Shown here: positions 7,495 to 59,665 of the stretch, in pieces | How positions within the stretch are numbered: position 1 is the stretch's first letter | Layout: each line of letters opens with the position of its first letter | Source: a virus | Taxonomy: Duplodnaviria; Caudoviricetes | Strand: one strand, 5' to 3' | Length of the DNA: 64,000 nt | Virus record (IMG/VR): IMGVR_UViG_3300024235_000344 | Location: 4,982 to 68,981 of that record | Position numbers and translations under genes: made by a program | The notes under the pieces: model-generated | The model's database searches: none | Told to the model about the DNA's origin: nothing | The model's input: only the letters and a program-made list of their open reading frames with translations

Positions 7495-7510
7495 ATTATA
7501 TTATAGTTCC
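7495..7510 (-). promoter_or_regulatory. GGAAC-N5-TATAAT promoter motif (also has TTGATT-N16)
   Basis: GGAAC TATAA TATAAT, 6 nt before queE ATG. Confidence 0.6.
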
Positions 7511-7586
7511 GGTTCAAATCAAGTTGAATATTATATTTAATTAAAAATACCTGTTTACAAATACATTTTTTTCGGTGTGTAAATTT

Positions 7587-7594
7587 TATAAATA
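7587..7594 (+). promoter_or_regulatory. T4-type late promoter TATAAATA
   Basis: Exact consensus 7 nt before phoH ATG 7602. Confidence 0.65.
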
Positions 7595-7601
7595 TATGTA
7601 T

Positions 7602-8363
7602 ATGGCAACCAAAAAAACTACTCGTAAGAGTACTAAAACCGTAAAGAAACAACCCATAACACAAACAGATTTAAATTTTGAAATACCAAAAGATGGTTGG
7701 GATTTAGATTTTAAAATAAAGCAGGAGTATGATTTAACTCCGAGACAGCAGGAGTTTTTAAATACTACGCTGCAACAAACAAATAAAATGTGTATTGTTG
7801 ATGGACCTGCAGGTACAGCAAAGACTTACCTGGCTGTTCTTGCTGCTTTAAAGCTTTTAAATACAAGAAGTGTTGATAATATCATATATATTAGATCAAT
7901 CGTTGAGAGTGCTTCTAGAAGTATGGGAGCTTTACCTGGTGAATTAGAAGATAAGTTTGCACCATGGTCAATGCCTCTTATTGATAAATTGGAAGAGGTA
8001 TTAGTTGGTAATACTGGTAATAACTTGTTATCTAAAGGTTATATTAAGTGTATACCAGTTAACTTTACTAGAGGTTTAACGTTTAAAAACGCATGTGTCA
8101 TAATTGATGAAGCGCAAAACATGACTAACTCGGAATTAACTACTATATTAACACGTTTTGGTGTAGATAGTAAGTATATTGTTGTTGGTGATACCTTTCA
8201 AGCTGATATCGGCGAAAAGAGTGGGTTTAAAGGTATATATAAAGCTTTTGATGACCCAGTATGCACCGATGAAGGTATTAATACCTTTAAATTCGATGGA
8301 GATGATATAGTTCGAAGTGAAATCTTAAAGTTTATCGTCGAAAGACTCAGCACTGTTAAGTAA
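7602..8363 (+). CDS. phoH: PhoH-like ATPase
   Basis: 'GPAGTAKTYLA', 'GALPGELEDKF', 'RGLTF', 'IIDEAQNMT', 'GDTFQAD', 'DIVRS'; start set to ATG 7602. Confidence 0.93.
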   Translation: MATKKTTRKSTKTVKKQPITQTDLNFEIPKDGWDLDFKIKQEYDLTPRQQEFLNTTLQQTNKMCIVDGPAGTAKTYLAVLAALKLLNTRSVDNIIYIRSIVESASRSMGALPGELEDKFAPWSMPLIDKLEEVLVGNTGNNLLSKGYIKCIPVNFTRGLTFKNACVIIDEAQNMTNSELTTILTRFGVDSKYIVVGDTFQADIGEKSGFKGIYKAFDDPVCTDEGINTFKFDGDDIVRSEILKFIVERLSTVK

Positions 8364-8597
8364 TTCTTTCATCGCTTGCTCTAACCCGACTGGTTGTACG
8401 TTGATGACTGGTTGAGCATCTTGCTGATCAGTAGGTTTATCTGGTGTAACTGCTTGCTGCATTTGAGCAAAGACATTATTTTCTAATTCTACAGATTTAG
8501 GATCTCTTTCACGTGCCGATGGCATGCTACCAGCCATGCCATACATTCCTATTGAAGTCTTTTGAACGTTGTTAGAATATATATCTCCTAAACCCAT
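8325..8597 (-). CDS. Hypothetical protein
   Basis: 90-aa ORF starting right after the queD stop. Confidence 0.55.
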   Translation of the reverse strand: MGLGDIYSNNVQKTSIGMYGMAGSMPSARERDPKSVELENNVFAQMQQAVTPDKPTDQQDAQPVINVQPVGLEQAMKELLNSAESFDDKL

Positions 8598-8599
8598 TA

Positions 8600-9295
8600 T
8601 TACTTATTACCCCATGAAGTACCTGCAAATGGGTCACCAAAACCTGTACTTCTCTTATTATATAGACCAGGAGCGTTAGGTTGTTCTTGTACAACTGGCT
8701 TAACTTCTTCTTTAACTTCAATAATAGGTGTCTTAACCTCTGGCACTTCAGTAATATTATTTCCAATCACTGCAGTGTTTGTAGTGATTTCTGATTCCGG
8801 TTCAGTTACATTTTCTTCCTCTGTATTACTATGAACCTGTAATGTGATCTCACCGAGACTTTCTTCATATATAGCACTATTACCTTCATGCTCCCATACT
8901 TCTACTTTAATAAGACGTACGCGACTATTAGTTGTCTCATCTACATATTTACTAACTGTATCATAAACCCATTCAGCTGTTCTTTCAATACCAACACCTT
9001 TCTTAGCAATACGAAGATCAATCATACCTTTTGTAGACATTAACTCAAACATACTCAATTCAGGATCATCAGCTGCTACTACAGTTGTATGGTCAAATTG
9101 CTTCTCTAATAATTTCTTAATCTCTCTACAACCACCAAAATCAAATACCCAATTTTTATCATCTAGTTCGTCAGCTGTAAACCATAACTTACATTGTAAA
9201 CGATAACCGTGAATTAACTTACAATGACTATCTGCTCTCCATTGACGAAAAGCGGTTGATCCCATAGGAATAATTTTAGTTGATACATATCTCAT
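8600..9295 (-). CDS. queD: 6-carboxytetrahydropterin synthase with ~85-aa C-terminal extension
   Basis: 'STAFRQWRADSHCKLIHGY', 'WVFDFG', 'FDHT', 'VEVWEHEGNSA'. Confidence 0.88.
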   Translation of the reverse strand: MRYVSTKIIPMGSTAFRQWRADSHCKLIHGYRLQCKLWFTADELDDKNWVFDFGGCREIKKLLEKQFDHTTVVAADDPELSMFELMSTKGMIDLRIAKKGVGIERTAEWVYDTVSKYVDETTNSRVRLIKVEVWEHEGNSAIYEESLGEITLQVHSNTEEENVTEPESEITTNTAVIGNNITEVPEVKTPIIEVKEEVKPVVQEQPNAPGLYNKRSTGFGDPFAGTSWGNK

Positions 9296-9301
9296 ATATA
9301 T

Positions 9302-9329
9302 ATTATGAAGTATATATTGTAGTATTCAA
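9302..9329 (-). promoter_or_regulatory. sigma70-like promoter TTGAAT-N16-CATAAT
   Basis: Direct reading; 6 nt before queD ATG. Confidence 0.55.
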
Positions 9330-9408
9330 CTATTAAATTATTTTTTTAAAAAAGTGGATTAATATTTCTAATGATTTATAATACCTTTAGGTGGAAGGGA
9401 GGAGAATA

Positions 9409-10017
9409 TTACGATTGCCTTTTATAACTTTCTTTATTAACTCCTCTTTTAAGAGATACATTTCTTTTATCAAATGCATATGCAGCTCCACCATTTACCT
9501 TTATTTGAATAAAACCAGGTTTATCGATAATAGCTGATACCGTACCTACTGCTTTAGGATTCTTTTTTGTTTTAACAAATACTTCATCACCGACTTTAAA
9601 TTTAACATTTGATACCGGTGCTGGTTTAGCTGGCGGGGTTGGTTTAGATGTTGGTGTTGGTTTAGCTGTCGATCGACCACTCGTTGAAGTTACTATAGTA
9701 CTAGGTGGTTGAATACCTTTCATTTGTTGTTGTTGATCAAAACGGGCACCAACTTCAGCACTTTTAGCTTTTGCTTCTTGATTTCTAGCTTCTGCACTTC
9801 TCATTCTATGACCACGTGTACCTGGTATTGCTGCAGCTATACGACTTAAAAAGCCACCAGATGCAGCGGGTGCAGCTGGGAGGGTTGGTGCCTTTGGACC
9901 TCTGATCTCATTTAAAATTTTATTAAAAATACCTTTATTAAAAACTTCAACAACTATAGATTTTTTTGTAAGGTTAAAATGTTTTTGTGTTTTTTCAAAT
10001 AATTCTTTATCGGTCAT
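9409..10017 (-). CDS. Hypothetical late protein; Ala/Pro-rich linker, SH3/KOW-like C-terminus
   Basis: TAAATA-N5-ATG; C-terminal 'FKVGDEVFVK...GTVSAI'. Confidence 0.6.
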   Translation of the reverse strand: MTDKELFEKTQKHFNLTKKSIVVEVFNKGIFNKILNEIRGPKAPTLPAAPAASGGFLSRIAAAIPGTRGHRMRSAEARNQEAKAKSAEVGARFDQQQQMKGIQPPSTIVTSTSGRSTAKPTPTSKPTPPAKPAPVSNVKFKVGDEVFVKTKKNPKAVGTVSAIIDKPGFIQIKVNGGAAYAFDKRNVSLKRGVNKESYKRQS

Positions 10018-10044
10018 TGAAATATTTAATCAATAATGTATAAT
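10017..10044 (+). promoter_or_regulatory. sigma70-like promoter TTGAAA-N16-TATAAT
   Basis: 6 nt before folE2 ATG. Confidence 0.65.
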
Positions 10045-10050
10045 TAATGT

Positions 10051-11116: not shown

Positions 11117-11148
11117 AAAAGCTATTACGTGTTTGTAATAGCTTTTTT
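11117..11148 (+). terminator. Intrinsic terminator
   Basis: AAAAGCTATTAC-GTGTTT-GTAATAGCTTTT plus T-run after folE2. Confidence 0.85.
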
Positions 11149-11162
11149 TATATATAAAGTTA

Positions 11163-11178
11163 GGAACTATCATATAAT
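11163..11178 (+). promoter_or_regulatory. GGAAC-N5-TATAAT promoter motif
   Basis: GGAAC TATCA TATAAT, 6 nt before ATG 11185. Confidence 0.6.
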
Positions 11179-11184: not shown

Positions 11185-11718
11185 ATGAATATTTTTTGTA
11201 CAGATGATGATCCGATTAAAGCAGCAGAAGATTTATGTGATCAGCATGTTAGATCTAAGATGCAAATTGAGGGAGCTATTATGTTAGCTCATGCATTTCC
11301 TCAAGAAGTATTGAATCATGAATCTTGTCCTAGAACTTCGTTAGGTAAGCCTCGTAAACGCGGTAAAGGTTACTTTAATCATCAATGTAGTATATGGGCT
11401 AGAGAGACTACAGATAATTTTATGTGGTTAGTTAATCATACACTACATATGTTTAGTGAAAGGCAGTTTAGATGGCCAGATTCAAAAGACCATTTTACAT
11501 ATAGTTTTATTAAATGGTGTGGAGAAAACGTGCATAATACTATTATCGATAAAACTAAATTGACGGAATTTGCAGTAGCGATAAATCAAGAATGTAACTG
11601 TAGATTGCAAAATAAAAATTTCGATGATCTACCTGTAATTGATCAATATCGAGAGTATATCCGAAAAGATAAGCCGTTTGCTACATGGACTCAACGTAAT
11701 GAGCCAGACTGGTATTAA
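11185..11718 (+). CDS. Pyrimidine-dimer DNA glycosylase/endonuclease V family protein
   Basis: 'MNIFCTDDDPIKAAEDLCDQHV..KMQIE', 'NHQCSIWARE', 'YREY', C-terminal 'RNEPDW'. Confidence 0.8.
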   Translation: MNIFCTDDDPIKAAEDLCDQHVRSKMQIEGAIMLAHAFPQEVLNHESCPRTSLGKPRKRGKGYFNHQCSIWARETTDNFMWLVNHTLHMFSERQFRWPDSKDHFTYSFIKWCGENVHNTIIDKTKLTEFAVAINQECNCRLQNKNFDDLPVIDQYREYIRKDKPFATWTQRNEPDWY

Positions 11719-23792: not shown

Positions 23793-23809
23793 AAAATTAT
23801 TTAATCTAG

Positions 23810-23817
23810 TATAAATA
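23810..23817 (+). promoter_or_regulatory. T4-type late promoter TATAAATA
   Basis: Exact consensus 5 nt before ATG 23823; a divergent TAAATA serves 23792. Confidence 0.7.
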
Positions 23818-23822
23818 ATTAT

Positions 23823-28438: not shown

Positions 28439-28996
28439 TTATTTAATGAGAAGTAGTTTTGTTGAAAGTCTATTAAAGTAATCATTGTTAAGAAATGTTA
28501 AATCATATTTTTTAGTCATTTTCTTAATATTACTAAATGTATATTTTGATATATCCAACTTATCACACTTTAATCTTATTGAATTGATAGTTAAAGCACT
28601 CTTACCATCGCCGATATCGATAAGATGCTTAAGATAATCTAATGATAATCTACTTACATGTAATATTATAGGTAACGCGTTGTTTAATTTTTTGATAATT
28701 TTTAATAAAACCGTTAAAATATCCTTTTCACTATAATATTTCATTAATTCACATTCATTAAGTTGATTGTAATTAAAAAATACAACAGACTTTGAATTTA
28801 TTTTTAATATTTTACTACATACATGGTAAATTATATAGTGTAAAAATATTTTATTGGTATCTTTATTAGTTATACTCTTATCTAAGAGCTCAAATTTATG
28901 TAAGTCATTAATAATATCAAATTGAATATCTTCAGTAAACATCTCATTGAAATTTATTAAATTTAAATCATATACTTTTAAATATAAATCACTCAC
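28439..28996 (-). CDS. Hypothetical protein
   Basis: GTG start 5 nt after a GGAAC-N5-TATAAT motif. Confidence 0.6.
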   Translation of the reverse strand: MSDLYLKVYDLNLINFNEMFTEDIQFDIINDLHKFELLDKSITNKDTNKIFLHYIIYHVCSKILKINSKSVVFFNYNQLNECELMKYYSEKDILTVLLKIIKKLNNALPIILHVSRLSLDYLKHLIDIGDGKSALTINSIRLKCDKLDISKYTFSNIKKMTKKYDLTFLNNDYFNRLSTKLLLIK

Positions 28997-29001: not shown

Positions 29002-29017
29002 ATTATATCACTGTTCC
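29002..29017 (-). promoter_or_regulatory. GGAAC-N5-TATAAT promoter motif
   Basis: GGAAC AGTGA TATAAT ATTGT GTG. Confidence 0.6.
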
Positions 29018-31553: not shown

Positions 31554-32030
31554 ATGGCTAATTTAAAACCAACTGGTAAACCTAAAGGTAAAAAAAGAGG
31601 ACCGAAACCTAAAATAAACGAGTATTATGTTAACCCGGAACTATTTAAACAAGAGTTAGTTGATTATTATAAATGTGAGGAATGTACACCGCTATTAGGT
31701 GACATGATACAAAAAATTGCACACGGGTTAAGTTATAAATCTAATTTTATTAACTATACATATCGAGATGAAATGGTAGGAGATGCATTAGTAAAAATGT
31801 ATACTGCAGTAACAAATAAAAAGTTTAATGTTGATTCTGAATATAATCCTTTTTCATATTTTACAACTATTGCTTTTCACGCATTTATTAATAGAATAAA
31901 AAAAGAAAAAAAGCATGCCAATACATTATCTGAATATAAAGAGAAAGTATATGAAGAAGAAATGGGTAATGCTACCGATGGTATGGTATACATTAAGCCG
32001 AATTCAGATGAATTAGAATATAGTGAATAA
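31554..32030 (+). CDS. 55: Late-transcription sigma factor gp55
   Basis: 'YYVN', 'IAHGLSYKSNFINYTYRDEMVGDA', 'NPFSYFTTIAFHAFINRIKKEKK'. Confidence 0.92.
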   Translation: MANLKPTGKPKGKKRGPKPKINEYYVNPELFKQELVDYYKCEECTPLLGDMIQKIAHGLSYKSNFINYTYRDEMVGDALVKMYTAVTNKKFNVDSEYNPFSYFTTIAFHAFINRIKKEKKHANTLSEYKEKVYEEEMGNATDGMVYIKPNSDELEYSE

Positions 32031-34912: not shown

Positions 34913-36130
34913 ATGATTAATCCTCAAGGTAACGTACCATTTCAATCAACACCATTTAATATAAAGCCGTTTACTTCTAATAATAATATTAAACCGCAAA
35001 TAAATCAAAAATTAGAAAAACCACCAGAAACACAATTACCTAGATTTTTAAATTATTATGCTGATTATAGTGGTTGTGGTCATTGGAGAATGATCTGGCC
35101 AGAACAGATTATGAACGCTCATAATAAAGCTGTAGTACACGGAACTACAGTCATGAATGCTGATCCCAGATATTACACCCAAACTAAGGCTGTAAGAATT
35201 CAGCGACAAGCAACTCCTCAGCAATTAGAGTTTGTTAAATTTTTAAGAAAATTGGCTGATGCAAATAACTTTAGGTTAATATATGAAATTGATGATATAT
35301 GCTTTCATGAAGATATTCCTGATTATAATAAATATAAAACAGCATTTACAGATCCAAAAATAAGACAATCTGCACAAGAGATGATGGAGATATGTGATGA
35401 AATTACAGTTACATGCCCATTTATGCGTGATTATTATGCATCAAAGACAAATAATAAAAACGTAACAGTTATACCAAATTTTATGCCTAAATTTTGGATT
35501 GGTGGTAAATCTGATATTAATCGTACGATGGAGAGCTACGAAAAAAATAAAAGAAAACCTCGTATATTATATGCAGGTTCTGGAGCTCATTTTGATGTTG
35601 AAAATCGTACTAAATTTAGAGATGACTTTGAGCATGTCAATGATGTTATTCGTCGTACGGTGGATAAATATCAATGGGTATTTTTAGGAGCGCATCCGTT
35701 ACCGATAAGAGATTTAATTCAAAACGGTAAAATAGAATTTCATCCATGGAAGCGGTTATATGAATACGGTCAAGGATTATATGATCTTAATGTTAATATG
35801 ATTGTTGCACCATTACAGGATAGTACATTTAATCGCGCAAAATCTGATTTAAAATATATTGAAGCATGCGCTTTAGGTTTACCGATTGCTTGTCAAGATC
35901 TTTGTACATATGAAAACGCACCTATTAAATTTAGAACAGGTGATGAGATGATTGATCAAATTGAAAGTACATTAAGAGATCGTAAAAGATATAAATCTTT
36001 ATGTAAGAAAGCATCTCAATATGCTGATACAAGGTGGTTGGAAGATGATATGAATATTGACTGCTATACAGAATTATATCAATACGGTGTTAATGACCCT
36101 AAAAGGTTAAACTTAAGTAGATATAATTAG
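34913..36130 (+). CDS. GT-B-fold (GT4-like) glycosyltransferase
   Basis: 'DYSGCGHWRM', 'IYEIDD', 'CDEITVT', 'VIPNF', 'APLQDSTFNRAKSDLKYIEACALGLP'. Confidence 0.8.
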   Translation: MINPQGNVPFQSTPFNIKPFTSNNNIKPQINQKLEKPPETQLPRFLNYYADYSGCGHWRMIWPEQIMNAHNKAVVHGTTVMNADPRYYTQTKAVRIQRQATPQQLEFVKFLRKLADANNFRLIYEIDDICFHEDIPDYNKYKTAFTDPKIRQSAQEMMEICDEITVTCPFMRDYYASKTNNKNVTVIPNFMPKFWIGGKSDINRTMESYEKNKRKPRILYAGSGAHFDVENRTKFRDDFEHVNDVIRRTVDKYQWVFLGAHPLPIRDLIQNGKIEFHPWKRLYEYGQGLYDLNVNMIVAPLQDSTFNRAKSDLKYIEACALGLPIACQDLCTYENAPIKFRTGDEMIDQIESTLRDRKRYKSLCKKASQYADTRWLEDDMNIDCYTELYQYGVNDPKRLNLSRYN

Positions 36131-36145
36131 GAACTGTATTATAAT
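36130..36145 (+). promoter_or_regulatory. GGAAC-N5-TATAAT promoter motif
   Basis: GGAAC TGTAT TATAAT, 6 nt before polymerase GTG. Confidence 0.6.
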
Positions 36146-36151: not shown

Positions 36152-38713
36152 GTGAGTTACCGAAATATATACTACGATGCAAAGGAAAGATGTGTTAATT
36201 TATTTACCTGGGATGAAGATGGTAAAAGGATTAAAGTAAAAGCTTCATACGACCCGTATCTTTATATTGAAAGTGGTAACGGTGAAGCTGAATCTATATT
36301 TGGTACTAAACTAGTTAAGAAGACTTTTAGGACGCAGTATGAACGTTACAAGTATATAAAAGATACTGGTGTTAAAAGGGTATTTGACAACTTACCAGCC
36401 ATTCAGCAATACCTTGTTGATTCGTTCTGGAAAGTAAATGAAACTCCTGAATTTAGTCAAAATCCTATTAAAGTACTTTTTGTAGATATCGAAACATATT
36501 CACCGGATGAATTTCCTAATCCTCAAGACCCTACCCATACGTGTAATGTTATTACTGCATATGATTCAATTGCAGATGAGTATATGACGTTCGGTTTAGG
36601 GGAGTATGACAATAAAGATGATGATGTAACTTATATACATTGTAAGAGTGAACATGAATTGTTTCAGAATTTTGTGGAGTATATTGAAAAGGATTACCCT
36701 GATATTATATCTGGTTGGAATTCGGAGTTCTTCGACTTACCTTACATTATTAATAGATGTGAAAGACTATTAGGTGAAGATTGGAGAAATCGTTTATCAC
36801 CATCAGGTAAAGTATATAGCAGAGCTATTAAAGGTCAATTTGGTCAAGAGCAAATTAGATGGTATATTGAAGGTGTATCATTGATCGACTATTTAGATGT
36901 TTATAAACGATTCTCACCAGGTGTTAAAGCAAGTTATAAACTAGATGCTATTGGTGCTGCTGAGTTAGGAGAAAAGAAAGTCGATTTCGGTAATATGAAT
37001 CTTGCGACTTTAGCTGATAAGGATTGGCAGACATTTGTAGAGTATAATATTCAGGACGTTAGACTACTTAAAAAGCTTGAGGAAAAACTAAAGTATACTG
37101 AGTTGATTAAAATGCTAGCGTATGTTGGCTTGACGTCCTTTGAAGCTGCACTAGGTTCGCTTTCGGTTATCAACGGTGCAACTGCAGTTACAGCAAGGTA
37201 TAGGAATCAAAAAATACCTTCGTTTATACGAAATGAGGATACAGGTAAGAATCCTGGTGCTTATGTAGGTGAACCTAGAAGTGGGTTTCAAGAAAATATC
37301 GTTTCGTTTGATGCTAATTCACTATACCCTAATGTAATGATATCTTTAAATATGTCACCTGAAACTAAAATAGGTAAGATTGAGGATAAGACTGATAATA
37401 ATGTTACTATACGTCATGTTAATGGTAAGACGTTTACATTAGATACTGAGAAGTTTATTGAGTTTGTAAAGAATGAAGAAATTGGTATTAGTAAAGCTAA
37501 TGTACTTTTTAGTCAGAAGAAGCAAGGCATCATGCCTACTATTTTAGATTTTTATTATAATAAACGCGTTGAAGTTAAAAAGGAATTAAACATATTAAAA
37601 AGAGAATATGCAAATAATAAAGATAAAGTAACCAAGACTAAGATAGATCAATTAGATTCAAAGCAGTTATGTATTAAGGTTTTTATTAATTCTATTTACG
37701 GTTATTTTGGTAATAGGCATGCCCCTTTTGGTGATGATGATATTGCATCATCTATTACATTGACAGGTCAATCTGTTATTAAGAAATCAAATGAGTTACT
37801 TAAAAATTATGTTAAAGAGCAAACTGGTATTACTGATGTTGAAAAACTAGAAAGTTGTGTTGTATATAATGATACTGATAGTTCATATATATCTATAAAG
37901 TTATTAATTGATAATATGAATATATCATTTAAACATGAAGATGGTACTCTAACAAAGCAACTATATGATGAAGTTCAGAATATTGAAGACTATCTAAATG
38001 CAGAAATTAAGATATGGGGAGCTAAAGCTTTAAACTCTAAAGACTGTAGATTTATATTCAAACGAGAAGTTATAGCTGATGTTGGTATATTTTTACAGAA
38101 GAAGCGTTATGTATTGCATATATTGGATGATGAAGGTATACCAATGGATAAATATAAGTATACCGGGGTTGAAGTAGTACGTAGTACAATGCCTGAACCT
38201 ATTAAACCGCATGTTAAAGGTATTATTGAAACTATGCTTTCAACGCAAAGTATTGTTGAAACGAATAATTTATTGAATGAAACGTATAAGATTTTTAAAA
38301 GCTTACCCGTTGAGGATATTACATTTGTATCTGGTCTAAAAAATTATGAAAACTATGCAAGGCAATGTGATGGATATAAAACTGCAAAAGGTATGCCTAT
38401 CCACGCAAAGGCTGCATATTATTATAATATGCTATTAAAGAAGTTTGATATCGAAAATGATTATGAAACTATTAGTAGTGGTGATAAAGTTCGATATTTT
38501 TATATTCAGCAACCGAACCCTTACAATATATCTTGCTTAGCTTACAAATATTATTTACCTGATGAGTTTAAGGAAGTTTTCTTTGCAGATTATGATAAGA
38601 TGTTTCAAAAGAACCTTTATGCTGTAATTGAACGATTCTATGAAAATGTTAATTGGTCTATTCAACAACCTGGCCAAGCAGTACAGACAAATTTATTCGA
38701 TCTTTTAAGTTGA
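36152..38713 (+). CDS. 43: Family B DNA polymerase gp43
   Basis: Exo 'VDIETY', 'SGWNSEFFDLPY'; pol 'SFDANSLYP', 'KVFINSIYG', 'YNDTDS', 'KKRY'. Confidence 0.96.
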   Translation: MSYRNIYYDAKERCVNLFTWDEDGKRIKVKASYDPYLYIESGNGEAESIFGTKLVKKTFRTQYERYKYIKDTGVKRVFDNLPAIQQYLVDSFWKVNETPEFSQNPIKVLFVDIETYSPDEFPNPQDPTHTCNVITAYDSIADEYMTFGLGEYDNKDDDVTYIHCKSEHELFQNFVEYIEKDYPDIISGWNSEFFDLPYIINRCERLLGEDWRNRLSPSGKVYSRAIKGQFGQEQIRWYIEGVSLIDYLDVYKRFSPGVKASYKLDAIGAAELGEKKVDFGNMNLATLADKDWQTFVEYNIQDVRLLKKLEEKLKYTELIKMLAYVGLTSFEAALGSLSVINGATAVTARYRNQKIPSFIRNEDTGKNPGAYVGEPRSGFQENIVSFDANSLYPNVMISLNMSPETKIGKIEDKTDNNVTIRHVNGKTFTLDTEKFIEFVKNEEIGISKANVLFSQKKQGIMPTILDFYYNKRVEVKKELNILKREYANNKDKVTKTKIDQLDSKQLCIKVFINSIYGYFGNRHAPFGDDDIASSITLTGQSVIKKSNELLKNYVKEQTGITDVEKLESCVVYNDTDSSYISIKLLIDNMNISFKHEDGTLTKQLYDEVQNIEDYLNAEIKIWGAKALNSKDCRFIFKREVIADVGIFLQKKRYVLHILDDEGIPMDKYKYTGVEVVRSTMPEPIKPHVKGIIETMLSTQSIVETNNLLNETYKIFKSLPVEDITFVSGLKNYENYARQCDGYKTAKGMPIHAKAAYYYNMLLKKFDIENDYETISSGDKVRYFYIQQPNPYNISCLAYKYYLPDEFKEVFFADYDKMFQKNLYAVIERFYENVNWSIQQPGQAVQTNLFDLLS

Positions 38714-44755: not shown

Positions 44756-45225
44756 GTTTAAATTACATAACAAATACTAAAATAACTGAACTTGATAAAC
44801 TAAACTTTATTAAGTTTGTATATGATAATACAGATTCATTTATTATGAATACATTCGGACATGTATGGTCAGGTAGAAATTGGTGGAAAAAGTTTCCTAT
44901 TGAAGTTTGTATTGACGATGCCGGTACTATTATAGGTTTACATGCATATAGTGTAAATGATAAATTTCCTAAAACTTTAAAGACATACTTTATCGTAACT
45001 AGTAAAGAAGCACGAGGTAAAGGTGTAGCTAAGACGTTAGTACGAAATGCAATTTCTAAGCATAAAGATGATATTGAATTTTACTATGTTAATTCAGATA
45101 TTAGAAGTGATGGTTGTGCTTTCTATAAAAAGTGGTTAGGTAAAAAATTTGAAATTACTTCTAACGATTTTGAATCACAAGATATCACATTTAAGGAACC
45201 TATTTATAATATTATTAATGGATGA
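44752..45225 (+). CDS. GNAT acetyltransferase
   Basis: 'IVTSKEARGKGVAKTLV' acyl-CoA motif; 'AFYKK'. Confidence 0.75.
   Translation: MSLNYITNTKITELDKLNFIKFVYDNTDSFIMNTFGHVWSGRNWWKKFPIEVCIDDAGTIIGLHAYSVNDKFPKTLKTYFIVTSKEARGKGVAKTLVRNAISKHKDDIEFYYVNSDIRSDGCAFYKKWLGKKFEITSNDFESQDITFKEPIYNIING
45195..45210 (+). promoter_or_regulatory. GGAAC-N5-TATAAT promoter motif (inside GNAT 3' end)
   Basis: GGAAC CTATT TATAAT, 7 nt before ATG 45218. Confidence 0.55.
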
Positions 45226-45556
45226 TCTAAAAACAACTGGGAAACCTCGTCAGTTTGAAACTGGTGCACAACGTGATAACGGTGATGGTAAATTGCGTAT
45301 GAGCTTAGTGCCACATAAAGCTTTAGAGTCAGTTATGATGAGATACTTACAAGGTGCTGAAGCGTATGGTGAAAATAACTGGCGTAAAGGTATGAAGCAT
45401 TCTATATTATATGATAGTACAATGAGACATTTAATGCAAGACTTTAAAGGTGATGTAAGTGAAGATCATCTCGGAGCAGTATTATGGAATGTAATGGGAA
45501 TGATTTGGAATAGAGATAATAAACCAGAACTAGATGACCGTAAAGACTATGAATAA
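45218..45556 (+). CDS. dATP/dGTP diphosphohydrolase-like protein (DUF5664 family)
   Basis: 'FETGAQRD..DGKLRMSLVP', 'GAEAYGENNWRKG', 'STMRH', 'EDHLGAVLWN'. Confidence 0.85.
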   Translation: MDDLKTTGKPRQFETGAQRDNGDGKLRMSLVPHKALESVMMRYLQGAEAYGENNWRKGMKHSILYDSTMRHLMQDFKGDVSEDHLGAVLWNVMGMIWNRDNKPELDDRKDYE

Positions 45557-46226: not shown

Positions 46227-47551
46227 AAAGATTAAATTTAGATTATTATGAGCAAGTACTCATATATAAAAGTCTTACTGATGAAAGGTATCTAGCTCAA
46301 ATTATTGATCATGTACAACCTGAATATTTTAACGATAAAAATATTAAAAAAATATTTACGTTAATTAAAACCTTTTATGTAAAGAGACAAACATTACCAT
46401 CTATAACTGAACTTAAATCATACTTAATAAATGATGATTTAAAGCATAGTTTTGCTAACGTAGTTAAGAATTTTAAGGATATTGATAGAGATTTTAATAA
46501 TGATGAACTAGTACATAATACAGAAAGATTTTTAAAAGAAAGAGCAATTTATAATACTATGTTGGCTGTAGCAGAAGATATATCTTCTGGTAAAGTTGAT
46601 ACAAGTTATATTTTAGACTCATTTGAAAAGAGTTGTAATGTTGATCTAAAGAGTGAAATAGGTCTAGACTTGTATGAAGATATTGATATACTAGTTGATG
46701 AGATTAATACCGACCAACCTACAATACCATCAAAGTGGAAATGGTTAGATGATAAGTTGGATGGTGGTTTCTTAGAAAATGGTAGAGCGATATACGTTTT
46801 TGCTGGTGAAACGAATGTTGGTAAGTCTATTTTTCTAGGTAACATTGCATGCAATATTGCAAGTCAAGGTAAAACTGTTTTACTTATATCTTTAGAGATG
46901 TCAGAAATGATGTATGCTAAAAGATTATCTTCAAGTATAACAAATATACCGATGCGAGAAATGAGAAACGATTCTAATACGTTAAAGCATCGTATACAGC
47001 AGCATAGTGTTAATAATCCGAATGATAAAATTATTATTAAAGAGTACCCGCCTAGTACTATAACATCGCAGCAAATTCAAGGATTTGTACGTGAATTACA
47101 TAATAAAGGTATTAAGCCAGATACAATTGTATTAGATTATTTAAATCTGTTAAAGAGTGATATTGGTAATAATTCATATGAAAGAATAAAATATGTTACT
47201 GAAGAGATTAGAGCTTTAAGCTATGTGTTTAATTGTCCTATAATTTCAGCTACTCAATTAAATCGATCTGGTTATGATGAGGAGAATCCTGGATTAGATA
47301 CTATATCTGAATCGATTGGAATGGCAGCAACTGCTGACTGTATTATAAGCGTATTTCAAAACGATGAAGATAAAGAACTTGGTATTGTTCGTTTGGGTAT
47401 GATGAAGAATCGTTTTGGACCTAATTACGGGGTACAAGCCATGCGAATAGATTATAATACATTAACGTTAAGTGAAGATGAAACTATTCAGGATTGCGGT
47501 GATACAGATCTAGGTGGTATATCAAATGCTTTAGGAATGTTGAGTAATTAA
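46214..47551 (+). CDS. 41: Replicative DNA helicase gp41
   Basis: 'GETNVGKS', 'ISLEMSE', 'KEYP', 'LDYLNL', 'SATQLNRSG', 'ISES', 'MKNRFG'. Confidence 0.93.
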   Translation: MEEIERLNLDYYEQVLIYKSLTDERYLAQIIDHVQPEYFNDKNIKKIFTLIKTFYVKRQTLPSITELKSYLINDDLKHSFANVVKNFKDIDRDFNNDELVHNTERFLKERAIYNTMLAVAEDISSGKVDTSYILDSFEKSCNVDLKSEIGLDLYEDIDILVDEINTDQPTIPSKWKWLDDKLDGGFLENGRAIYVFAGETNVGKSIFLGNIACNIASQGKTVLLISLEMSEMMYAKRLSSSITNIPMREMRNDSNTLKHRIQQHSVNNPNDKIIIKEYPPSTITSQQIQGFVRELHNKGIKPDTIVLDYLNLLKSDIGNNSYERIKYVTEEIRALSYVFNCPIISATQLNRSGYDEENPGLDTISESIGMAATADCIISVFQNDEDKELGIVRLGMMKNRFGPNYGVQAMRIDYNTLTLSEDETIQDCGDTDLGGISNALGMLSN

Positions 47552-47573
47552 AAGTGGGAACTAAATAAAGTAA

Positions 47574-48461
47574 ATGCCTAAAATACACGTATTTACTGAC
47601 GCTGACTTAGACGGAGCTGGCTCTTTTTTAGCTTTAAAACTAGCATATAAAAATGCTGATATATCTTATAGTGTAACCACGGAAAAGAATTTTAGAGAAA
47701 ACATATTAAATTGGCAGCTTAAAGATAGCTTTAAAAATTATGATACAGTTTTTATATGTGATTTAAATATAAAAAATGATATAGCTTTAATTGATAGAGA
47801 TAACGTAGTTGTATTTGACCATCATGCAGAACATGTAAACCATTTAGATGAATATGTAAGAGCAAAAGCTATTGTAAAAGAGTATCCATCGTGTACATTA
47901 TTAATGTATCATTCTCTGAAGTTAAAGGAAAAGATAACAGATCATCAAAAGCTTTTAATTAATTTTATTTCTGATTACGATAGCTATGTATTAAAATTTC
48001 CACAAAGTCGATCACTTAATCAAATCTTTTGGAACTATACTGGTGATCGTGTACAGAAATTTTTAATAGATTTCGAAAACGGTTTTTATGGTTTTAATCA
48101 ATACCAAAAAAATGCATTAAAAATTGTTGAAAAAAATATTGAAAACTATTTTAAAACTCAAGCATTATATAAAGGTAACTTAAAAATATCCGGTAAAGAT
48201 TATAATGTAATGGGAGGTTTCTTTTCTTTCAGTCCTAATGAAATTGCAGAAAGAGCTTTACATGAAAATAATGCCGATGTTATTTTATTAATAAATTTAA
48301 AGTCTAAAACAGTTTGTTATAGAAAATCTAAAACATGTGATTTAGATGTTGGTAAATTAGCTGAAAAGTTAGCAGGTGGTGGTGGTCATGAAGCCGCTGC
48401 TGGATCTTTGTTAAATGATACTATAATTAATATTACCAAACTACTACAACCAATATGTTAG
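47574..48461 (+). CDS. DHH/DHHA1 phosphoesterase
   Basis: 'TDADLDG', 'ICDL', 'FDHH', 'GGGGHEAAAG'. Confidence 0.88.
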   Translation: MPKIHVFTDADLDGAGSFLALKLAYKNADISYSVTTEKNFRENILNWQLKDSFKNYDTVFICDLNIKNDIALIDRDNVVVFDHHAEHVNHLDEYVRAKAIVKEYPSCTLLMYHSLKLKEKITDHQKLLINFISDYDSYVLKFPQSRSLNQIFWNYTGDRVQKFLIDFENGFYGFNQYQKNALKIVEKNIENYFKTQALYKGNLKISGKDYNVMGGFFSFSPNEIAERALHENNADVILLINLKSKTVCYRKSKTCDLDVGKLAEKLAGGGGHEAAAGSLLNDTIINITKLLQPIC

Positions 48462-50307: not shown

Positions 50308-50813
50308 TGAGTGATCAACCTCCAGAATCATTTGAAAGACAATTATCGTCACAAGAAGAACGAGATGTGTTACTCAATTTTATGGGTAACACATACGGTG
50401 AAATTAAAAAACTTGATGGTAACATTGTAGGTGCGTCTTCAACTCTTCAAGCTACAAAAAGTGAAGAAGTTAAAAGACACATTGAAAAGGTATTTAATGA
50501 ACCTCATTCTCAAGTTCAGCAACCTCAAGTTCAGCAAGCACCAGTCCATCAACCTCAAGTTCAGCAAGCACCAGTCCATCAACCTCAAGTTGAACTAGTT
50601 CAGCAACCAGATATAGATCAAAATCAATTATCATTTAATTTTGACGTAAATGAGAAAGAGGAATTATTTGAATTAGTTAATAAAATGTTAACTAGGTTGG
50701 ATAAATTAAATCGTAAAGTTGATATATTAACTGATTTAGCCCATCAACCTCGTTTAGTAAAAAAAAAATCAATCAATCGAAAAAAAGCAGTTAAAGCAAC
50801 TAAGGAACTATAA
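50307..50813 (+). CDS. Hypothetical protein with Q/P/V repeats
   Basis: 168-aa ORF containing QPQVQQAPVH repeats. Confidence 0.65.
   Translation: MSDQPPESFERQLSSQEERDVLLNFMGNTYGEIKKLDGNIVGASSTLQATKSEEVKRHIEKVFNEPHSQVQQPQVQQAPVHQPQVQQAPVHQPQVELVQQPDIDQNQLSFNFDVNEKEELFELVNKMLTRLDKLNRKVDILTDLAHQPRLVKKKSINRKKAVKATKEL
50509..50591 (+). repeat. 30-bp in-frame tandem repeat (2 full copies plus partial flanks)
   Basis: CAACCTCAAGTTCAGCAAGCACCAGTCCAT at 50520 and 50550. Confidence 0.9.
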
Positions 50814-50819
50814 TATAAT
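50804..50819 (+). promoter_or_regulatory. GGAAC-N5-TATAAT promoter motif
   Basis: GGAAC TATAA TATAAT, 11 nt before gp45 ATG. Confidence 0.55.
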
Positions 50820-50830: not shown

Positions 50831-51574
50831 ATGATTTTATTAAAAATAAAAAATAAAAAAGACTTTATCAATAGTTTTTTAGGTTCTATATCAAACTTAA
50901 ATGATATGGGTATATTAACAGTTACTGCTGATTCATTAACGTGTATATTAGCATCAGCTGATGCAACTATTGTTTGTAAATCTACAATTAATGTAGAATG
51001 TGATATGCCGCAGGATTCAATTACTTTAAATATACCTGATATTAAACGATTAGTTAGAGTTTTAGATATATTACCAGATCAATCGATTGAATTAAAAATT
51101 GAATCTAATAATATTTCATATAATAAAGGTGGTTATAAATTTAAATACCATCTACTTGATGATGGTATTATTAAACAACCTAATCTTAATATGGAAAAGG
51201 TTGGTAAGCTTAATTTTGATACTACCTTTAAAGTTAAAGAGCAAAATCTTAGTACTTTATTTAAAGGCAGTTCATTTACTAGTGAAACTCATAAATTATA
51301 TATATTTCAAGAAGAGCAAGATAAAATTATTGGTGAGCTAGGAGATAAAAATAGACATAATACAGATAATTTTGTTTGCGAGTTATCAAATGAAACTGAA
51401 GGTAGTATGATAACCAAACCGTTACCATTAAACTTTGAATCATTTAGATTGATTAACTTTAATGGTTGTAGGGAAATGATTTTTAACGTAAATCAGGAGA
51501 TGGGAGTATTGACTTGTTCTTTTAATAAAGGGGATACATCATTGATTTATATAATTTCAGCTCTAATTAATTAA
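50831..51574 (+). CDS. 45: Sliding clamp gp45
   Basis: ~247 aa, clamp-like pattern ('LNIPDIKRLVRVL', 'FKYHL'); replication-module context. Confidence 0.7.
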   Translation: MILLKIKNKKDFINSFLGSISNLNDMGILTVTADSLTCILASADATIVCKSTINVECDMPQDSITLNIPDIKRLVRVLDILPDQSIELKIESNNISYNKGGYKFKYHLLDDGIIKQPNLNMEKVGKLNFDTTFKVKEQNLSTLFKGSSFTSETHKLYIFQEEQDKIIGELGDKNRHNTDNFVCELSNETEGSMITKPLPLNFESFRLINFNGCREMIFNVNQEMGVLTCSFNKGDTSLIYIISALIN

Positions 51575-53950: not shown

Positions 53951-54897
53951 TGAAAATTGACATTAAAAATATTTTAGTAACAGGAGGTTATGGATTTATC
54001 GGAGGTAATTTTATCCGGTTTATTAAAGATAACTTCCCTCAGCATCGAATTGTATGTTTAGATAAAAATGGATACGCTTCTAATAAAAAATATGTAGAGG
54101 GGTTATGCGATAAAGAATATAAATTTGATTTAGTATGTAACAAGAAGCTAAATATGCTATTTGAGACAGAAGATAAATTTGACTATATATTCCACTTCGC
54201 AGCAGAGTCTCATGTAGATAATAGTATTAAAGATCCCTCTATTTTTATACAGTCAAACGTTGTAGGTACGCAAAATTTACTTGAATGTTTCCGTAAAGCA
54301 AAATATGGTAAAATGGTACATATTAGCACTGACGAAGTATACGGACATTTAGGGTTTAACGATCCTTCATTCTTAGAGTCGACCCCAATTAACCCTCGTT
54401 CTCCCTACGCTGCTAGTAAGGCATCAAGCGATCTCTTGTGTATGGCATATATTAATACCTTCGATTGTAATATTAGTATTACTAGATGCTGTAATAATTA
54501 TGGACCTAATCAGCATAGTGAGAAATTTATACCGACTATTATAAAATCTCTTAGTAAAAATAAGAAAGTACCAATTTACGGAGAAGGGCTTAATATACGC
54601 GAGTGGGTACATGTACATGATCATAATTTAGCTGTATGGGCAGTCGCAACGAATGGTAAACCTGAAGTATATAATATCGGTTCTGGCGTTGAATTAACTA
54701 ATATTGAATTGGTTGATAAAATCTGCAAGATAATGGATAAGGATTTAGATAAAAGCGCAGTATTTGTTGAAGATCGGTTAGGTCATGATTTCCGTTATAG
54801 TATTGACTGCAGTAAAATACAAGAAGAGTTATTATATGAGCCGCTATATACAGACTTCGATGAGCAGTTAAAAGAATTAGTTAAAGAGTATGTTTAA
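53947..54897 (+). CDS. rmlB: dTDP-glucose 4,6-dehydratase
   Basis: 'TGGYGFIG', 'HFAAESHVDNSI', 'ISTDEVYG', 'SPYAASK', 'NNYGP.Q..EK.IP', 'DRLGHD.RY'. Confidence 0.95.
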   Translation: MMKIDIKNILVTGGYGFIGGNFIRFIKDNFPQHRIVCLDKNGYASNKKYVEGLCDKEYKFDLVCNKKLNMLFETEDKFDYIFHFAAESHVDNSIKDPSIFIQSNVVGTQNLLECFRKAKYGKMVHISTDEVYGHLGFNDPSFLESTPINPRSPYAASKASSDLLCMAYINTFDCNISITRCCNNYGPNQHSEKFIPTIIKSLSKNKKVPIYGEGLNIREWVHVHDHNLAVWAVATNGKPEVYNIGSGVELTNIELVDKICKIMDKDLDKSAVFVEDRLGHDFRYSIDCSKIQEELLYEPLYTDFDEQLKELVKEYV

Positions 54898-55153
54898 ACA
54901 AAAAATAAAACAGGGTAATATATATGCGGTTCATCATGGTGATTATGCTGGTCAAATGATTGTATATATTATGCAAGATAAAAAGGAACAACGATATAAT
55001 TTTCTTGCGTTACCCGATATGAAAACATTAAAAATTAAGCAAACAGACTTTGATGAAGGTATGTCAACTGGATTGGTAAAATTCGTTGAGAAATCACCTA
55101 AACATGTTGTAAAAGTTATTGTTGCGCAGTATAAGAAAAACGAAAAACTATGA
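54890..55153 (+). CDS. Hypothetical protein
   Basis: 87-aa ORF coupled between rmlB and rnh. Confidence 0.6.
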   Translation: MFKQKIKQGNIYAVHHGDYAGQMIVYIMQDKKEQRYNFLALPDMKTLKIKQTDFDEGMSTGLVKFVEKSPKHVVKVIVAQYKKNEKL

Positions 55154-57330: not shown

Positions 57331-57380
57331 TTATAGTTTACCACCCTTCATATATTACTTTATTAAAAAGGTGGTTAAAT

Positions 57381-57635: not shown

Positions 57636-57663
57636 ATATAAATAATAATACCCGTTTAAAGTT

Positions 57664-58071
57664 TTAAAAATCACCTTCTATAAGTGAATCATACGCTTTT
57701 ACCAATTGAGGGTCATCAGCATAAGACTCTTGCTTTAATATATCAACAGCGTCGAATACCTTTTCAATTATTTGATTAATTTTGTCTTCTAATTCTGGTA
57801 CTTCTTCTTTAAGTTGTTCCAGTAAATTTACAGCACTTTCGCCAGCATGATTTTCACCATCTTCTGCTTGAGGGTATGCGAAACCGTAATGCTCTTCAAA
57901 TGCTTCAGCCCCGAACTGCTCGTAATATGAATCTTGTTCAGCACTAATAGCATCTTTACCTCTCATTATATTTTTTTCTCTGCTTTCGTTATCTTCATAA
58001 CCTTCGTTAATAAGAGGTTTAGATACAGCGTAAGCTTCAAAGATTGAGTTTATGTCAGTTTTATTATTCAT
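57664..58071 (-). CDS. Acidic late protein
   Basis: 'DINSIFEAY' N-terminus; TAAATA upstream. Confidence 0.6.
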   Translation of the reverse strand: MNNKTDINSIFEAYAVSKPLINEGYEDNESREKNIMRGKDAISAEQDSYYEQFGAEAFEEHYGFAYPQAEDGENHAGESAVNLLEQLKEEVPELEDKINQIIEKVFDAVDILKQESYADDPQLVKAYDSLIEGDF

Positions 58072-58082
58072 ATAATTATTAT

Positions 58083-58496
58083 TTAGTTAAATCTATATTT
58101 AGGATCGTTAGCTCCTGCTAAGTAACCTTTAAGTATTTCACTTAACGATGAAACTTCCATTGCTACTCTAGCAATCTTCTTTGTTTCAGAGTTTGAAATA
58201 CTATCAAAAATCGTATCAGCTTCTGCGGAATTTAAAGATGTTTGAATACTATCTGTAGTACCGTTAAGGTAATTAGAAAATTCATCCATTCTATTAATCC
58301 ACTCACTTAACTCATCAAACATCTCTCTTTGTTGAGAATTGACAGGGCTACCATCAGCTGTTTCAGGCATGTCAATATCAAAATCCCCAGCATCTGTTTC
58401 TGGATCTAAAGTTGATTGCATTGCTTCAGGATCAGTAAGTTGCTCTTCATCTTGCTCATTGAGAAACTTAATAAATTTTTTACTATATAAACTCAT
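58083..58496 (-). CDS. Acidic late protein
   Basis: TATAAATA-N5-ATG; 'KFIKFLNEQ'. Confidence 0.65.
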   Translation of the reverse strand: MSLYSKKFIKFLNEQDEEQLTDPEAMQSTLDPETDAGDFDIDMPETADGSPVNSQQREMFDELSEWINRMDEFSNYLNGTTDSIQTSLNSAEADTIFDSISNSETKKIARVAMEVSSLSEILKGYLAGANDPKYRFN

Positions 58497-58501
58497 ATTA
58501 T

Positions 58502-58513
58502 TATTTATAAATA
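58502..58513. promoter_or_regulatory. Overlapping divergent late promoters
   Basis: TATTTATAAATA gives TATAAATA on both strands, each exactly 5 nt from an ATG (58496 and 58519). Confidence 0.75.
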
Positions 58514-58518
58514 TTTAT

Positions 58519-58890
58519 ATGCAAAACAAAGGAAAACTCAAAATGTTTGTTGATCACTTATTAAGTGAAGATCAGATACCTGATTCTAGCCGACAGGTTA
58601 ATGGTATATCTTCAGATACACCACCTCAGCAAGTAGATGTTAACAGTTTACTTAAACAACAATCATCAGACGATAAAGCTCCGAAATTAAACCAATACCC
58701 TTTAAATGCATTCAATGAAATATCATCTGACCTATTTATAAATGTTCAAAATATTATAAGCATGCTCAAATCAGCTTACAATAACCCGAGTATTAAAGAT
58801 AAAAATAGTGTACAAGAGTGTTATGAGGTAGCTAACTCTATAGAACAAAAAATAGTTGATTTATCTAAAAAAGTCGGTAAAATCAAATAA
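58519..58890 (+). CDS. Hypothetical late protein
   Basis: Start set to 58519 by TATAAATA-N5-ATG. Confidence 0.6.
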   Translation: MQNKGKLKMFVDHLLSEDQIPDSSRQVNGISSDTPPQQVDVNSLLKQQSSDDKAPKLNQYPLNAFNEISSDLFINVQNIISMLKSAYNNPSIKDKNSVQECYEVANSIEQKIVDLSKKVGKIK

Positions 58891-59264
58891 TGATAAAATT
58901 TATAGTTTCAATAGTACTAACATTATGTATTAGTACTCTCTTTAGCCTCATATTTATTGATAACTTTAAAGTCGTATTTGCAATTGCAACTATATTACAA
59001 TTTATTGGGTTTTATCTGTTCAATACTGCATATGAAAATTTGCTTAAAAAGAAAGCAATTCAATTGTCTATAGATTTTGAAAAAGAACGTGCTAGAAATG
59101 TGGTTACTGTTAACTGCCCGTGTAGTGAAAATAACCAGCAATCAATTCAAATGACATTAAATGAAGATACAATATATGAATGCTCAAAGTGTAAGAAAGA
59201 AATAAGAGCTAGCAATAATGTAAGCACATTAATGACAACAGTACCAATGTATATACAACGATGA
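58890..59264 (+). CDS. Two-TM membrane protein with C-terminal Zn-ribbon-like Cys pairs
   Basis: Two hydrophobic helices; 'CPCS' and 'CSKC'. Confidence 0.6.
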   Translation: MIKFIVSIVLTLCISTLFSLIFIDNFKVVFAIATILQFIGFYLFNTAYENLLKKKAIQLSIDFEKERARNVVTVNCPCSENNQQSIQMTLNEDTIYECSKCKKEIRASNNVSTLMTTVPMYIQR

Positions 59265-59665
59265 GTTCAATTGAAAAACTAACTAACAATATACCAAGTT
59301 CAACACTTATATCTCAAGTTGAAGTAAATAAATTCCCTTTCGATGAACTCAAATTAGCATTAAAGGATTCTTTAGAAATGGATAACTACGATGCTTTTAT
59401 ACAAGGTATGGTGAAACAAAAAAATAATAAAAAGGTTGATATATTAAAGGTTTTTCTAGAATCCTTGTATAATGATATAAATGATATTAACAGTAAACAT
59501 ACCGGTGATGATAAATCATTCTTTAATATTAATAAGAAAATTTTAATAACGAACTTGCAAAACTCTCATGAAATTTTAAAAATGTATGGTATAGGGGATG
59601 ATAAGTTAATATATTCACTGTTAGGAACACTGATACAATATATATATGAAAGAAACGAACAGTAA
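59261..59665 (+). CDS. Hypothetical protein
   Basis: Coupled ORF, 134 aa. Confidence 0.6.
   Translation: MSSIEKLTNNIPSSTLISQVEVNKFPFDELKLALKDSLEMDNYDAFIQGMVKQKNNKKVDILKVFLESLYNDINDINSKHTGDDKSFFNINKKILITNLQNSHEILKMYGIGDDKLIYSLLGTLIQYIYERNEQ
59624..59639 (+). promoter_or_regulatory. GGAAC-N5-TACAAT promoter motif
   Basis: GGAAC ACTGA TACAAT, 6 nt before ATG 59646. Confidence 0.5.

Follow-up and report, generated by a model that had tools for sequence, protein, structure and literature searches.

A recurrent motif, GGAAC-N5-TATAAT, lies upstream of gene starts in a 64-kb stretch of viral DNA (hereafter the window: 64,000 nucleotides, positions 4,982 to 68,981 of the 68,981-bp IMG/VR record IMGVR_UViG_3300024235_000344; CheckV 33% complete; GC 30.7%), and we conclude that it marks a real promoter class, well conserved in a family of uncultured marine T4-like phages and apparently not described before. 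We interpret it as a genuine -35-independent promoter class of the sigma-70 type that gives rise to leaderless mRNAs, and put the probability of this reading at roughly 70%. The motif is enriched, keeps a fixed geometry, is conserved among related phages and interchanges with the -35 element at orthologous genes. Judged from these features, it very probably is a promoter, and GGAAC probably takes the place of the -35 hexamer.

The first-pass annotation of this DNA had listed seven upstream regions with the motif, and proposed a search against shuffled sequence and a check of conservation in related phages. All seven sites are real, and an eighth copy, at 54985, had been overlooked; for one of the seven, the listed 28996 marks the gene's start codon, and the motif lies at 29002-29017 on the minus strand. 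The pattern GGAACNNNNNTAYAAT occurs 8 times in the window versus 0.12 +/- 0.33 expected (100 dinucleotide shuffles, maximum 1), and 8/8 copies point the same way as the gene. GGAAC as such is found 34 times on the two strands; 8 of these 34 have the box at exactly N5 and 0 at N4 or N6, and when spacings from N0 to N20 were compared, N5 alone was enriched, in the window as well as in relatives. One-mismatch variants of GGAAC are scarce, with 0 at gene starts. The box precedes the start codon by 5-11 nt at the seven listed sites, as had been claimed (Table 1), and the statement that most sites lack TTGA also holds: a TTGA -35 element at 16-18 bp is missing from 7/8 copies, the sole exception being queE (TTGATT, 16-bp spacer). 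An extended -10 (TGn) accompanies 2/8 copies, and 5/8 have neither -35 nor TGn.

For comparison we used a genome set in which G000 is this phage and G001-G003 are related IMG/VR phages (G001: 185 kb, 88% complete), together with the fragments G006-G009 and with G010 (197 kb, 93% complete, polymerase 57% identical). Copies number 17 in G001, 7 in G002, 8 in G003, 5-19 in G006-G009 and 20 in G010; the reversed control pattern gave 0. The motif recurs at orthologous genes with its spacer drifting: upstream of the DNA polymerase gene, in 25 distinct sequences (enzymes 69-98% identical), GGAA(C) and TA(T)AAT are invariant with one exception each, and the N5 and the 6 nt before the GTG vary freely. 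Enrichment, fixed N5 and conservation thus bear out the earlier proposal of a separate, non-canonical promoter class. The box-to-start distance is 6 nt in 18/32 copies from G000-G003. Overall, 246 non-redundant copies were collected, with the consensus aaaAGGAACT.t.ATATAATAA.a.TATG; part of this set (Group B) was gathered with a search pattern that favours N6-ATG.

The relation of GGAAC to the -35 element was assessed at the 80 gene starts of G000-G003 with TAYAAT 4-8 nt upstream (genes being simple open reading frame (ORF) calls, with some starts missed). TTGA accompanies the box at 41 of these, GGAAC at 21, both at 6 and neither at 12, so that 85% of start-proximal -10 boxes have one or the other, versus 0.4% (GGAAC) and 1.6% (TTGA) for the 1887 TAYAAT copies elsewhere. 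The two elements interchange: polymerase orthologues carry GGAAC in G000-G003 and TTGA in G005, clamp-like orthologues carry GGAAC in G000, GGAAA in G001 and a TTGA -35 in G002, and queE has both in all four of G000-G003. The GGAAC class is also strict in its -10 box (TATAAT 25, TACAAT 3 and no others, 28/28), and the TTGA class, with TATAAT in 40/74, tolerates TAAAAT and others. Any TTGN at -35 is present in 16-19% of GGAAC copies, the -35 being missing in >80%, and an extended -10 TG in 25% of G000-G003 copies and 16% of those in other contigs. Some copies follow directly on clean terminators (window 11118-11149, G001 2116, L184, L228), and in the window the queE gene diverges from phoH (7575-8363) across an 86-bp intergenic region whose sole promoter-like sequence is the queE composite. 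A promoter is required at such terminators and at the divergent junction, and no other promoter-like sequence is present there.

Taken over the gene starts of the window and G001, three motif classes abut the start codon: TTGAWW, 16-17 bp, a -10 box, ~6 nt and ATG; GGAAC-N5-TATAAT-N6-ATG; and a late-type class with TAAATA ~5 nt before ATG, which is the geometry of T4 late promoters and which in G001 heads ~70 genes, many of the largest ORFs among them. If transcription starts at the canonical distance of 7 nt past the box, +1 would be the first base of the start codon and the mRNA would be leaderless; GGAAC would then span -22 to -18, in line with the earlier placement near -20. For the late geometry, TAAATA-N5-ATG, the canonical start point likewise coincides with the A of ATG. 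RNA polymerase prefers a pyrimidine at -1 and a purine at +1, and the base before the start codon is T in 36/41 TTGA, 6/6 dual, 12/21 GGAAC and 105/149 late-type genes versus 137/344 genes with no nearby promoter. This bias agrees with the pyrimidine/purine rule and so supports leaderless mRNAs, although it is weaker in the GGAAC class than in the TTGA and late classes. Shine-Dalgarno (SD)-like 4-mers precede 11-16% of genes with no nearby promoter versus 6-8% in shuffles, and are scarce even for internal operon genes. The family therefore seems, from these start-site patterns, to express most promoter-headed genes as leaderless mRNAs.

Several arrangements of these elements were observed alongside. 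Divergent gene pairs have intergenic regions down to 30 bp with two late boxes, as at 23793-23822 of the window. At 47547-47573, before the DHH phosphoesterase gene (47574-48461), GGAAC adjoins a late-type TAAATA (GGGAACTAAATAAAGTAAATG), an arrangement off the N5 geometry that is retained at G001 108435 and may be a hybrid promoter. Divergent late and GGAAC promoters overlap at G001 172796/173071 and 176552/177558 (L116-L118, L127), where TATTTAGGAAC serves as TAAATA in one direction and begins the GGAAC element in the other. In the cultured pelagiphage HTVC008M (L274, 1-50000) a late-type ATAAATAG stands 4-5 nt before many structural-gene ATGs, other genes having an AAGGAG SD site; start-abutting late promoters are common to this phage and the family, and the SD-free state and the GGAAC class are not.

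The coordinates of the window copies and of associated features are given in Table 1.

Table 1. GGAAC-N5-TATAAT copies and associated features in the window (position 1 is the first letter of the window; distances run from the box to the start codon)
Feature	Position	Strand	Associated gene and remarks
queE promoter (predicted), GGAAC-N5-TATAAT	7495-7510	-	queE, 6742-7488; ATG 6 nt past box
queE -35 hexamer, TTGATT	7517-7522	-	16 bp from box; composite promoter
Intrinsic-terminator-like hairpin and T-run	11118-11149	+	Ends 13 nt before next GGAAC
GGAAC-N5-TATAAT, no -35, no TGn	11163-11178	+	177-aa pyrimidine-dimer-glycosylase-like gene, 11185-11718; ATG 6 nt
GGAAC-N5-TATAAT, N5 = AGTGA, TGn	29002-29017	-	185-aa gene, 28439-28996; GTG 5 nt
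gp55-type late sigma gene	31554-32030	+	phrog_234, 3e-27; TTGA(-35)-type promoter, not GGAAC
GGAAC-N5-TATAAT	36130-36145	+	Family B DNA polymerase, 36152-38713; GTG 6 nt
GGAAC-N5-TATAAT, inside GNAT gene end	45195-45210	+	DUF5664 gene, 45218-45556; ATG 7 nt
GGAAC-N5-TATAAT	50804-50819	+	247-aa sliding-clamp-like gene, 50831-51574; ATG 11 nt
Eighth GGAAC copy	54985-55000	+	Inside 87-aa ORF, 54890-55153; in-frame ATG 55019, 18 nt past box
GGAAC-N5-TACAAT, N5 = ACTGA, TGn	59624-59639	+	87-aa gene of no assigned function, 59646-59909; ATG 6 nt

Most of these sites are retained in relatives, and the gene names given earlier stood up to varying degrees. The queE label is confirmed by a match to phrog_2076, and the composite of GGAAC and TTGA is kept at the G001-G003 orthologues. 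The terminator at 11118-11149 means that the gene downstream needs its own promoter, and the GGAAC-type motif alone is available there; this motif is found also at the G003 orthologue and at G001 site 27745(-). The product, named a UV glycosylase in the first-pass annotation, falls in phrog_624 and has Pyr_excise neighbours in the ESM Atlas (0.96), which is a lead for that label, but Pfam and PDB sequence searches were empty; the label gp45 for the clamp-like gene stands likewise, with an ESM Atlas lead (gp45-slide_C, 0.95) and empty Pfam and PDB sequence searches. By contrast with these two, the label of the family B DNA polymerase is confirmed, and DUF5664 matches PF18909 (dGTP/dATP diphosphohydrolase N-terminal domain, 7.8e-20). 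The first G of the 36130 motif overlaps the stop codon of an upstream glycosyltransferase gene, and the 45195 site has an identical N5 (CTATT) in G001 and G002. Family searches with the 185-aa protein encoded at 28439-28996 returned none, and its motif is retained at the G001 and G003 orthologues. The 59624 site, with TACAAT, is kept in G001 (120517) and G002 (55103). The internal copy at 54985 recurs in G001 (116307) and G002 (50652), in both of which a 52-aa frame begins at an in-frame ATG 9 nt past the box. The copy may be an internal promoter for a short isoform or the promoter of the downstream 283-aa gene.

The window encodes T4-type replication and recombination genes (family B DNA polymerase; UvsW-, UvsX- and UvsY-like and gp46/47-like proteins; gp41-like helicase; gp32-like single-stranded DNA-binding protein; primase; gp55-like late sigma) and the deazaguanine-pathway genes queC, queD and queE. 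Against cultured phages its polymerase reaches ~31% identity at best, the top matches being Kyanoviridae (Melnitz, C48C1, cyanophages), and IMG/VR holds at least 80 related contigs with polymerases 42-98% identical. As G004 and G005 show no enrichment of the motif, it had seemed limited to the clade with at least 69% polymerase identity; this was overturned by G010, in which 57% polymerase identity goes with 20 copies, so the class must be older and wider than that clade. All 20 lie on a single strand, 15 of them within a 22-kb small-gene region. A collection-wide scan found GGAAC-N5-TATAAT-N6-ATG in at least 119 stretches, several of which are arrays where each 30-150-aa gene stands behind a near-identical cassette with the consensus TAAGGAACTCYGATATAATAATAGTATG; these contigs have proteins in common with G001-G003. 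Arrays in the relatives hold 8-20 cassettes each, and those of L159, L165, L210 and G010 22.7-45 kb, all in one orientation, run to about 15-19 single-gene cassettes with near-identical 28-bp promoter units; the window has no such small-gene cassette array. The earlier statement that the targets are mostly replication and nucleotide genes accordingly describes the window (polymerase, clamp-like, queE, diphosphohydrolase-like and glycosylase-like genes) but not the relatives, where the class heads mostly arrays of small genes. These arrays look early or host-takeover in character, and their promoter repeats could double as recombination sites for gene shuffling, as with the PeSL cassettes discussed below.

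In the nearest cultured phages the motif is nearly absent. HTVC008M, Melnitz, C48C1 and S-SCSM1 (674 kb in total) have 1, 0, 0 and 0 copies, a BLAST search of 50,697 phage records with the cassette yielded no more than partial matches (E >= 1), megablast of the window and two arrays against cultured phages gave no matches, and in the literature on GGAAC with TATAAT in a phage context the motif is not described. In contigs L034-L043 and L068, whose polymerases are 57-59% identical, we observed GGAAC after TGGAATTA (the end of the upstream gene) at 5-10 nt from TATAAT, with flanks of the box that are often inverted repeats, e.g. CTATCTTAT-TATA-ATAAGATAG in L035; these could be a polymerase-specific operator resembling the translational operator of T4 gene 43.

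We propose that TATAAT would serve as an ordinary -10 box for the host primary sigma factor, that transcription would begin on the first base of the ATG or GTG and yield an mRNA with no leader, and that GGAAC, at -22 to -18 in the spacer, would be an upstream recognition element replacing the -35 hexamer. The reader of GGAAC would be the RNA polymerase holoenzyme or a protein fixed to it. The rigid 5-nt spacing points that way, as a freely positioned activator would not need such rigidity. The genes so driven would be pre-replicative (polymerase, clamp-like, queE, diphosphohydrolase-like, glycosylase-like and small ORFs). The obvious candidate reader is the surface formed by the beta-prime zipper and sigma region 3, which contacts the Z-element at the equal position. 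The Z-element, known from the T7 A1 and A2 promoters, occupies -22 to -18, acts via the beta-prime zipper of the core enzyme, replaces the -35 element given a strong -10, and can coexist with a -35 as -10/Z/-35 (Yuzenkova et al. 2011, PMC3173786). GGAAC likewise is 5 bp long, spans -22 to -18 five bp before the -10 and occurs in phage promoters. At the level of sequence it also behaves like a Z-element, with a consensus or near-consensus -10 in 28/28 of the GGAAC class versus 40/74 of the TTGA class, and 21 GGAAC-only versus 6 dual promoters.

Several points weigh against this interpretation. Promoter activity and start point are predicted from sequence, and sites 50804 (11 nt) and 54985 (18 nt, internal) depart from a strictly leaderless layout. 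Taken as a set, the copies show no excess of upstream terminators (11/246 copies, 4.5%, versus 16/544 controls, 2.9%). The likeness to the Z-element has limits: its sequence is AACCT or AACAT rather than GGAAC, with AAC offset by 2 bp, and it is loose, single substitutions having effects of <2-fold (PMC3173786), whereas GGAAC is invariant and its link to the zipper putative. Such invariance over 5 bp would be expected more readily of a dedicated DNA-binding protein than of a loop of the core enzyme. As for the host, 185,579 species genomes queried with the polymerase and the 19-base cassette gave no relatives and 7 single matches, a number consistent with chance.

What reads GGAAC, and when, we infer from the gene content. 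Reading by the polymerase itself and reading by a polymerase-bound phage protein appear about equally credible, each a little below even odds. An alternative sigma, one of the two readers proposed by the first-pass annotation, finds no support, since a profile search for a second sigma in G000-G003 gave one weak PF04542 (Sigma70_r2) match each, which is gp55, and no region 4; gp55 is thus the sole sigma-like gene found in these genomes. The other proposed reader, a phage activator, survives as one of the two roughly equal options although neither MotA/AsiA nor a DNA-binding regulator was recognised: PF09114, PF09158 and PF09010 had no hits in G000-G003 at a cutoff of E<=1, where remote analogues may escape hidden Markov models, and among the TTGA- and GGAAC-class products tested there were enzymes and unknowns but no recognisable DNA-binding regulator. 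Middle timing had also been proposed; in a strict form it is rather unlikely. The TTGA class drives genes of the same kind, its products comprising exonuclease, dTMP kinase, gp55, UvsX, UvsY, gp32, primase, dUTPase, phosphoribosyltransferase, QueD, epimerase and a few small unknowns; those of the GGAAC class are queE, the Pyr_excise-like protein, polymerase, the DUF5664-type diphosphohydrolase domain, the clamp-like protein and many unknowns, with a DUF366 protein and a KaiC/DnaB-like ATPase in G001. The two classes therefore overlap in function, and they swap at orthologues. The existence of both PeSL and PmSL cassettes in T4-type phages makes the small-gene arrays compatible with early or middle timing. 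A -35-independent class would moreover go on working in a phage that blocks sigma region 4, as the Thermus phage P23-45 does (PMC3950348), and would show 'middle' behaviour with no dedicated activator.

The most serious alternative is a factor-dependent middle promoter, in which a protein made early by the phage would recognise GGAAC, remodel sigma region 4, or do both, in the manner of MotA/AsiA but at -20, so that the class would fire only once early proteins are present. It falls within the promoter reading and is set apart by its reader and timing; we regard it as possible though well short of even odds. In its favour, dedicated DNA-binding surfaces typically recognise an invariant word such as this one (5 bp, ~10 bits), there are two coexisting pre-replicative classes, genes mostly keep their class, and the many small early-type ORFs could encode the factor. 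The motif is absent from the four cultured Kyanoviridae apart from the single HTVC008M copy, which points to a lineage-specific invention like MotA/AsiA in the T4 group; to our knowledge, T4-like phages outside that group lack MotA and AsiA. However, searches of G000-G003, among them the 88% complete G001, turned up neither MotA nor AsiA and neither a sigma region 4 nor a second sigma, and no DNA-binding regulator was recognised among the products tested; the targets overlap those of the TTGA class in function, and long small-gene arrays are typically early in T4-type phages, though PmSLs exist (PMC4122927). If, instead, GGAAC were the operator of a phage or host repressor within the spacer, it would be a negative element and not a -35 substitute. 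Its location in the spacer, the six promoters that also have a full -35 and the coordinated shut-off of early genes that a common array-wide site would permit are in keeping with this, but 21/27 GGAAC promoters in G000-G003 lack TTGA and most lack TGn, which would make them -10-only promoters. Known repressor operators do not look like a lone, non-palindromic 5-mer held at one exact distance from the -10, and GGAAC and TTGA interchange at orthologues; we hold an operator to be quite improbable.

Signals of other kinds fare worse. GGAAC could act at the RNA level on read-through transcripts, as a distant SD-like TAAGGA, a translational operator hairpin or an RNase site, with TATAAT arising from AT-richness. 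TAA or TTA often precedes the motif, and the resulting TAAGGA is the complement of the 3' end of 16S rRNA; many copies are operon-internal and come directly after the upstream stop codon, and some polymerase leaders of the 57-59% clade are palindromic around the box. Yet GGA stands 19 nt from the start codon, beyond SD range, and GGAAC never drifts to GGAGG; this distance and invariance rule out TAAGGA as a Shine-Dalgarno sequence. A hairpin or translational operator was rejected because no covariation between spacer and downstream column pairs was found in 67 instances (best z 2.8, out of register). A sigma-70 -10 consensus at a 6-nt distance has no RNA-level rationale, and other gene classes in these genomes also do without SD sites. 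We regard an RNA signal as highly improbable. Campylobacterota sigma-54 promoters approximate GGAAC-N5-TTGC, and the -35 boxes of extracytoplasmic function (ECF) sigma factors contain GGAAC or AAC, so GGAAC resembles both a low-GC sigma-54 -24 element and an ECF -35 element. A sigma-54-type (-24/-12) promoter was rejected, as TATAAT replaces the -12 GC in 246/246 copies and the start point would be inside the coding region. An ECF-type promoter was rejected too, as it requires a 16-17-bp spacer and a CGT-type -10 whereas N5 alone is enriched, and no ECF-like sigma gene was found in G000-G003. We consider the chance of either type negligible.

Returning to the -35-independent promoter class that we favour, a more far-reaching form of it is that GGAAC directs a new kind of takeover of the host RNA polymerase, being recognised at -20 by a small phage protein that is unrelated to MotA/AsiA and docks on the holoenzyme, or else by the polymerase core through its beta-prime zipper. 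Either way it would go together with leaderless expression across the genome in an abundant marine phage family. We advance this tentatively, at somewhat less than even odds. The small-protein form would mean that sigma appropriation arose twice, independently, among T4-like phages, and the core-reading form would be the first natural information-rich promoter class read by the beta-prime zipper and not by sigma region 4. GGAAC is also the sole G-rich promoter word used, and, given the deazaguanine-pathway genes carried, DNA modification could affect how it is read. Taken together, the three start-abutting classes (TTGA-N16/17-TATAAT, GGAAC-N5-TATAAT and TAAATA-N5-ATG) amount to promoter rules, precise enough to test, for a large marine family of uncultured phages; these rules would sharpen the calling of gene starts and operons in these genomes and point to leaderless translation as the family default. 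The GGAAC class would offer a test bed for -35-independent recognition at the Z-element position, or a handle on a new polymerase-binding factor. In a study of pelagimyophages, promoter prediction failed for middle and late genes (PMC7029224).

Among known systems, the middle promoters of T4, which depend on a MotA box and AsiA (Hinton 2010, PMC2988021), share with the GGAAC class a sigma-70 -10 combined with a phage-specific upstream element and no -35; they too head pre-replicative genes including polymerase and clamp, and coexist with -35/-10 and gp55 late classes. They differ in that the MotA box (TGCTT) is centred at -30 and GGAAC at -20, nothing being conserved at -30 in the logo of 246 copies, in that no MotA or AsiA homologues were found here, and in that T4 mRNAs have leaders and SD sites. 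The PeSL and PmSL cassettes of T4-type phages, i.e. early and middle promoter-stem-loop units (PMC2839356, PMC4122927), resemble the repeated near-identical cassettes before small ORFs in the relatives, but they consist of a stem-loop terminator and a -35/-10 promoter, whereas a stem-loop is present here in 11/246 copies, the -35 is missing and the stop codon abuts GGAAC. The Thermus phages P23-45 and phiYS40 (PMC3950348, PMC4124052; phiYS40 via PMC12340547) also have -35-less promoters, which can still be used when recognition of the -35 is blocked, with a -10 that abuts the start and leaderless transcripts; their extra element is a TG beside the -10, whereas TGn is found here in 16-25% of copies and the conserved word lies further upstream, and no factor of the gp39 or gp76 kind was identified here. 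The leaderless '-10 adjacent to ORF' type of Deinococcus-Thermus (PMC12340547), with a -10-to-start distance of ~6-7 nt and no SD site, is matched in the present family at the level of sequence.

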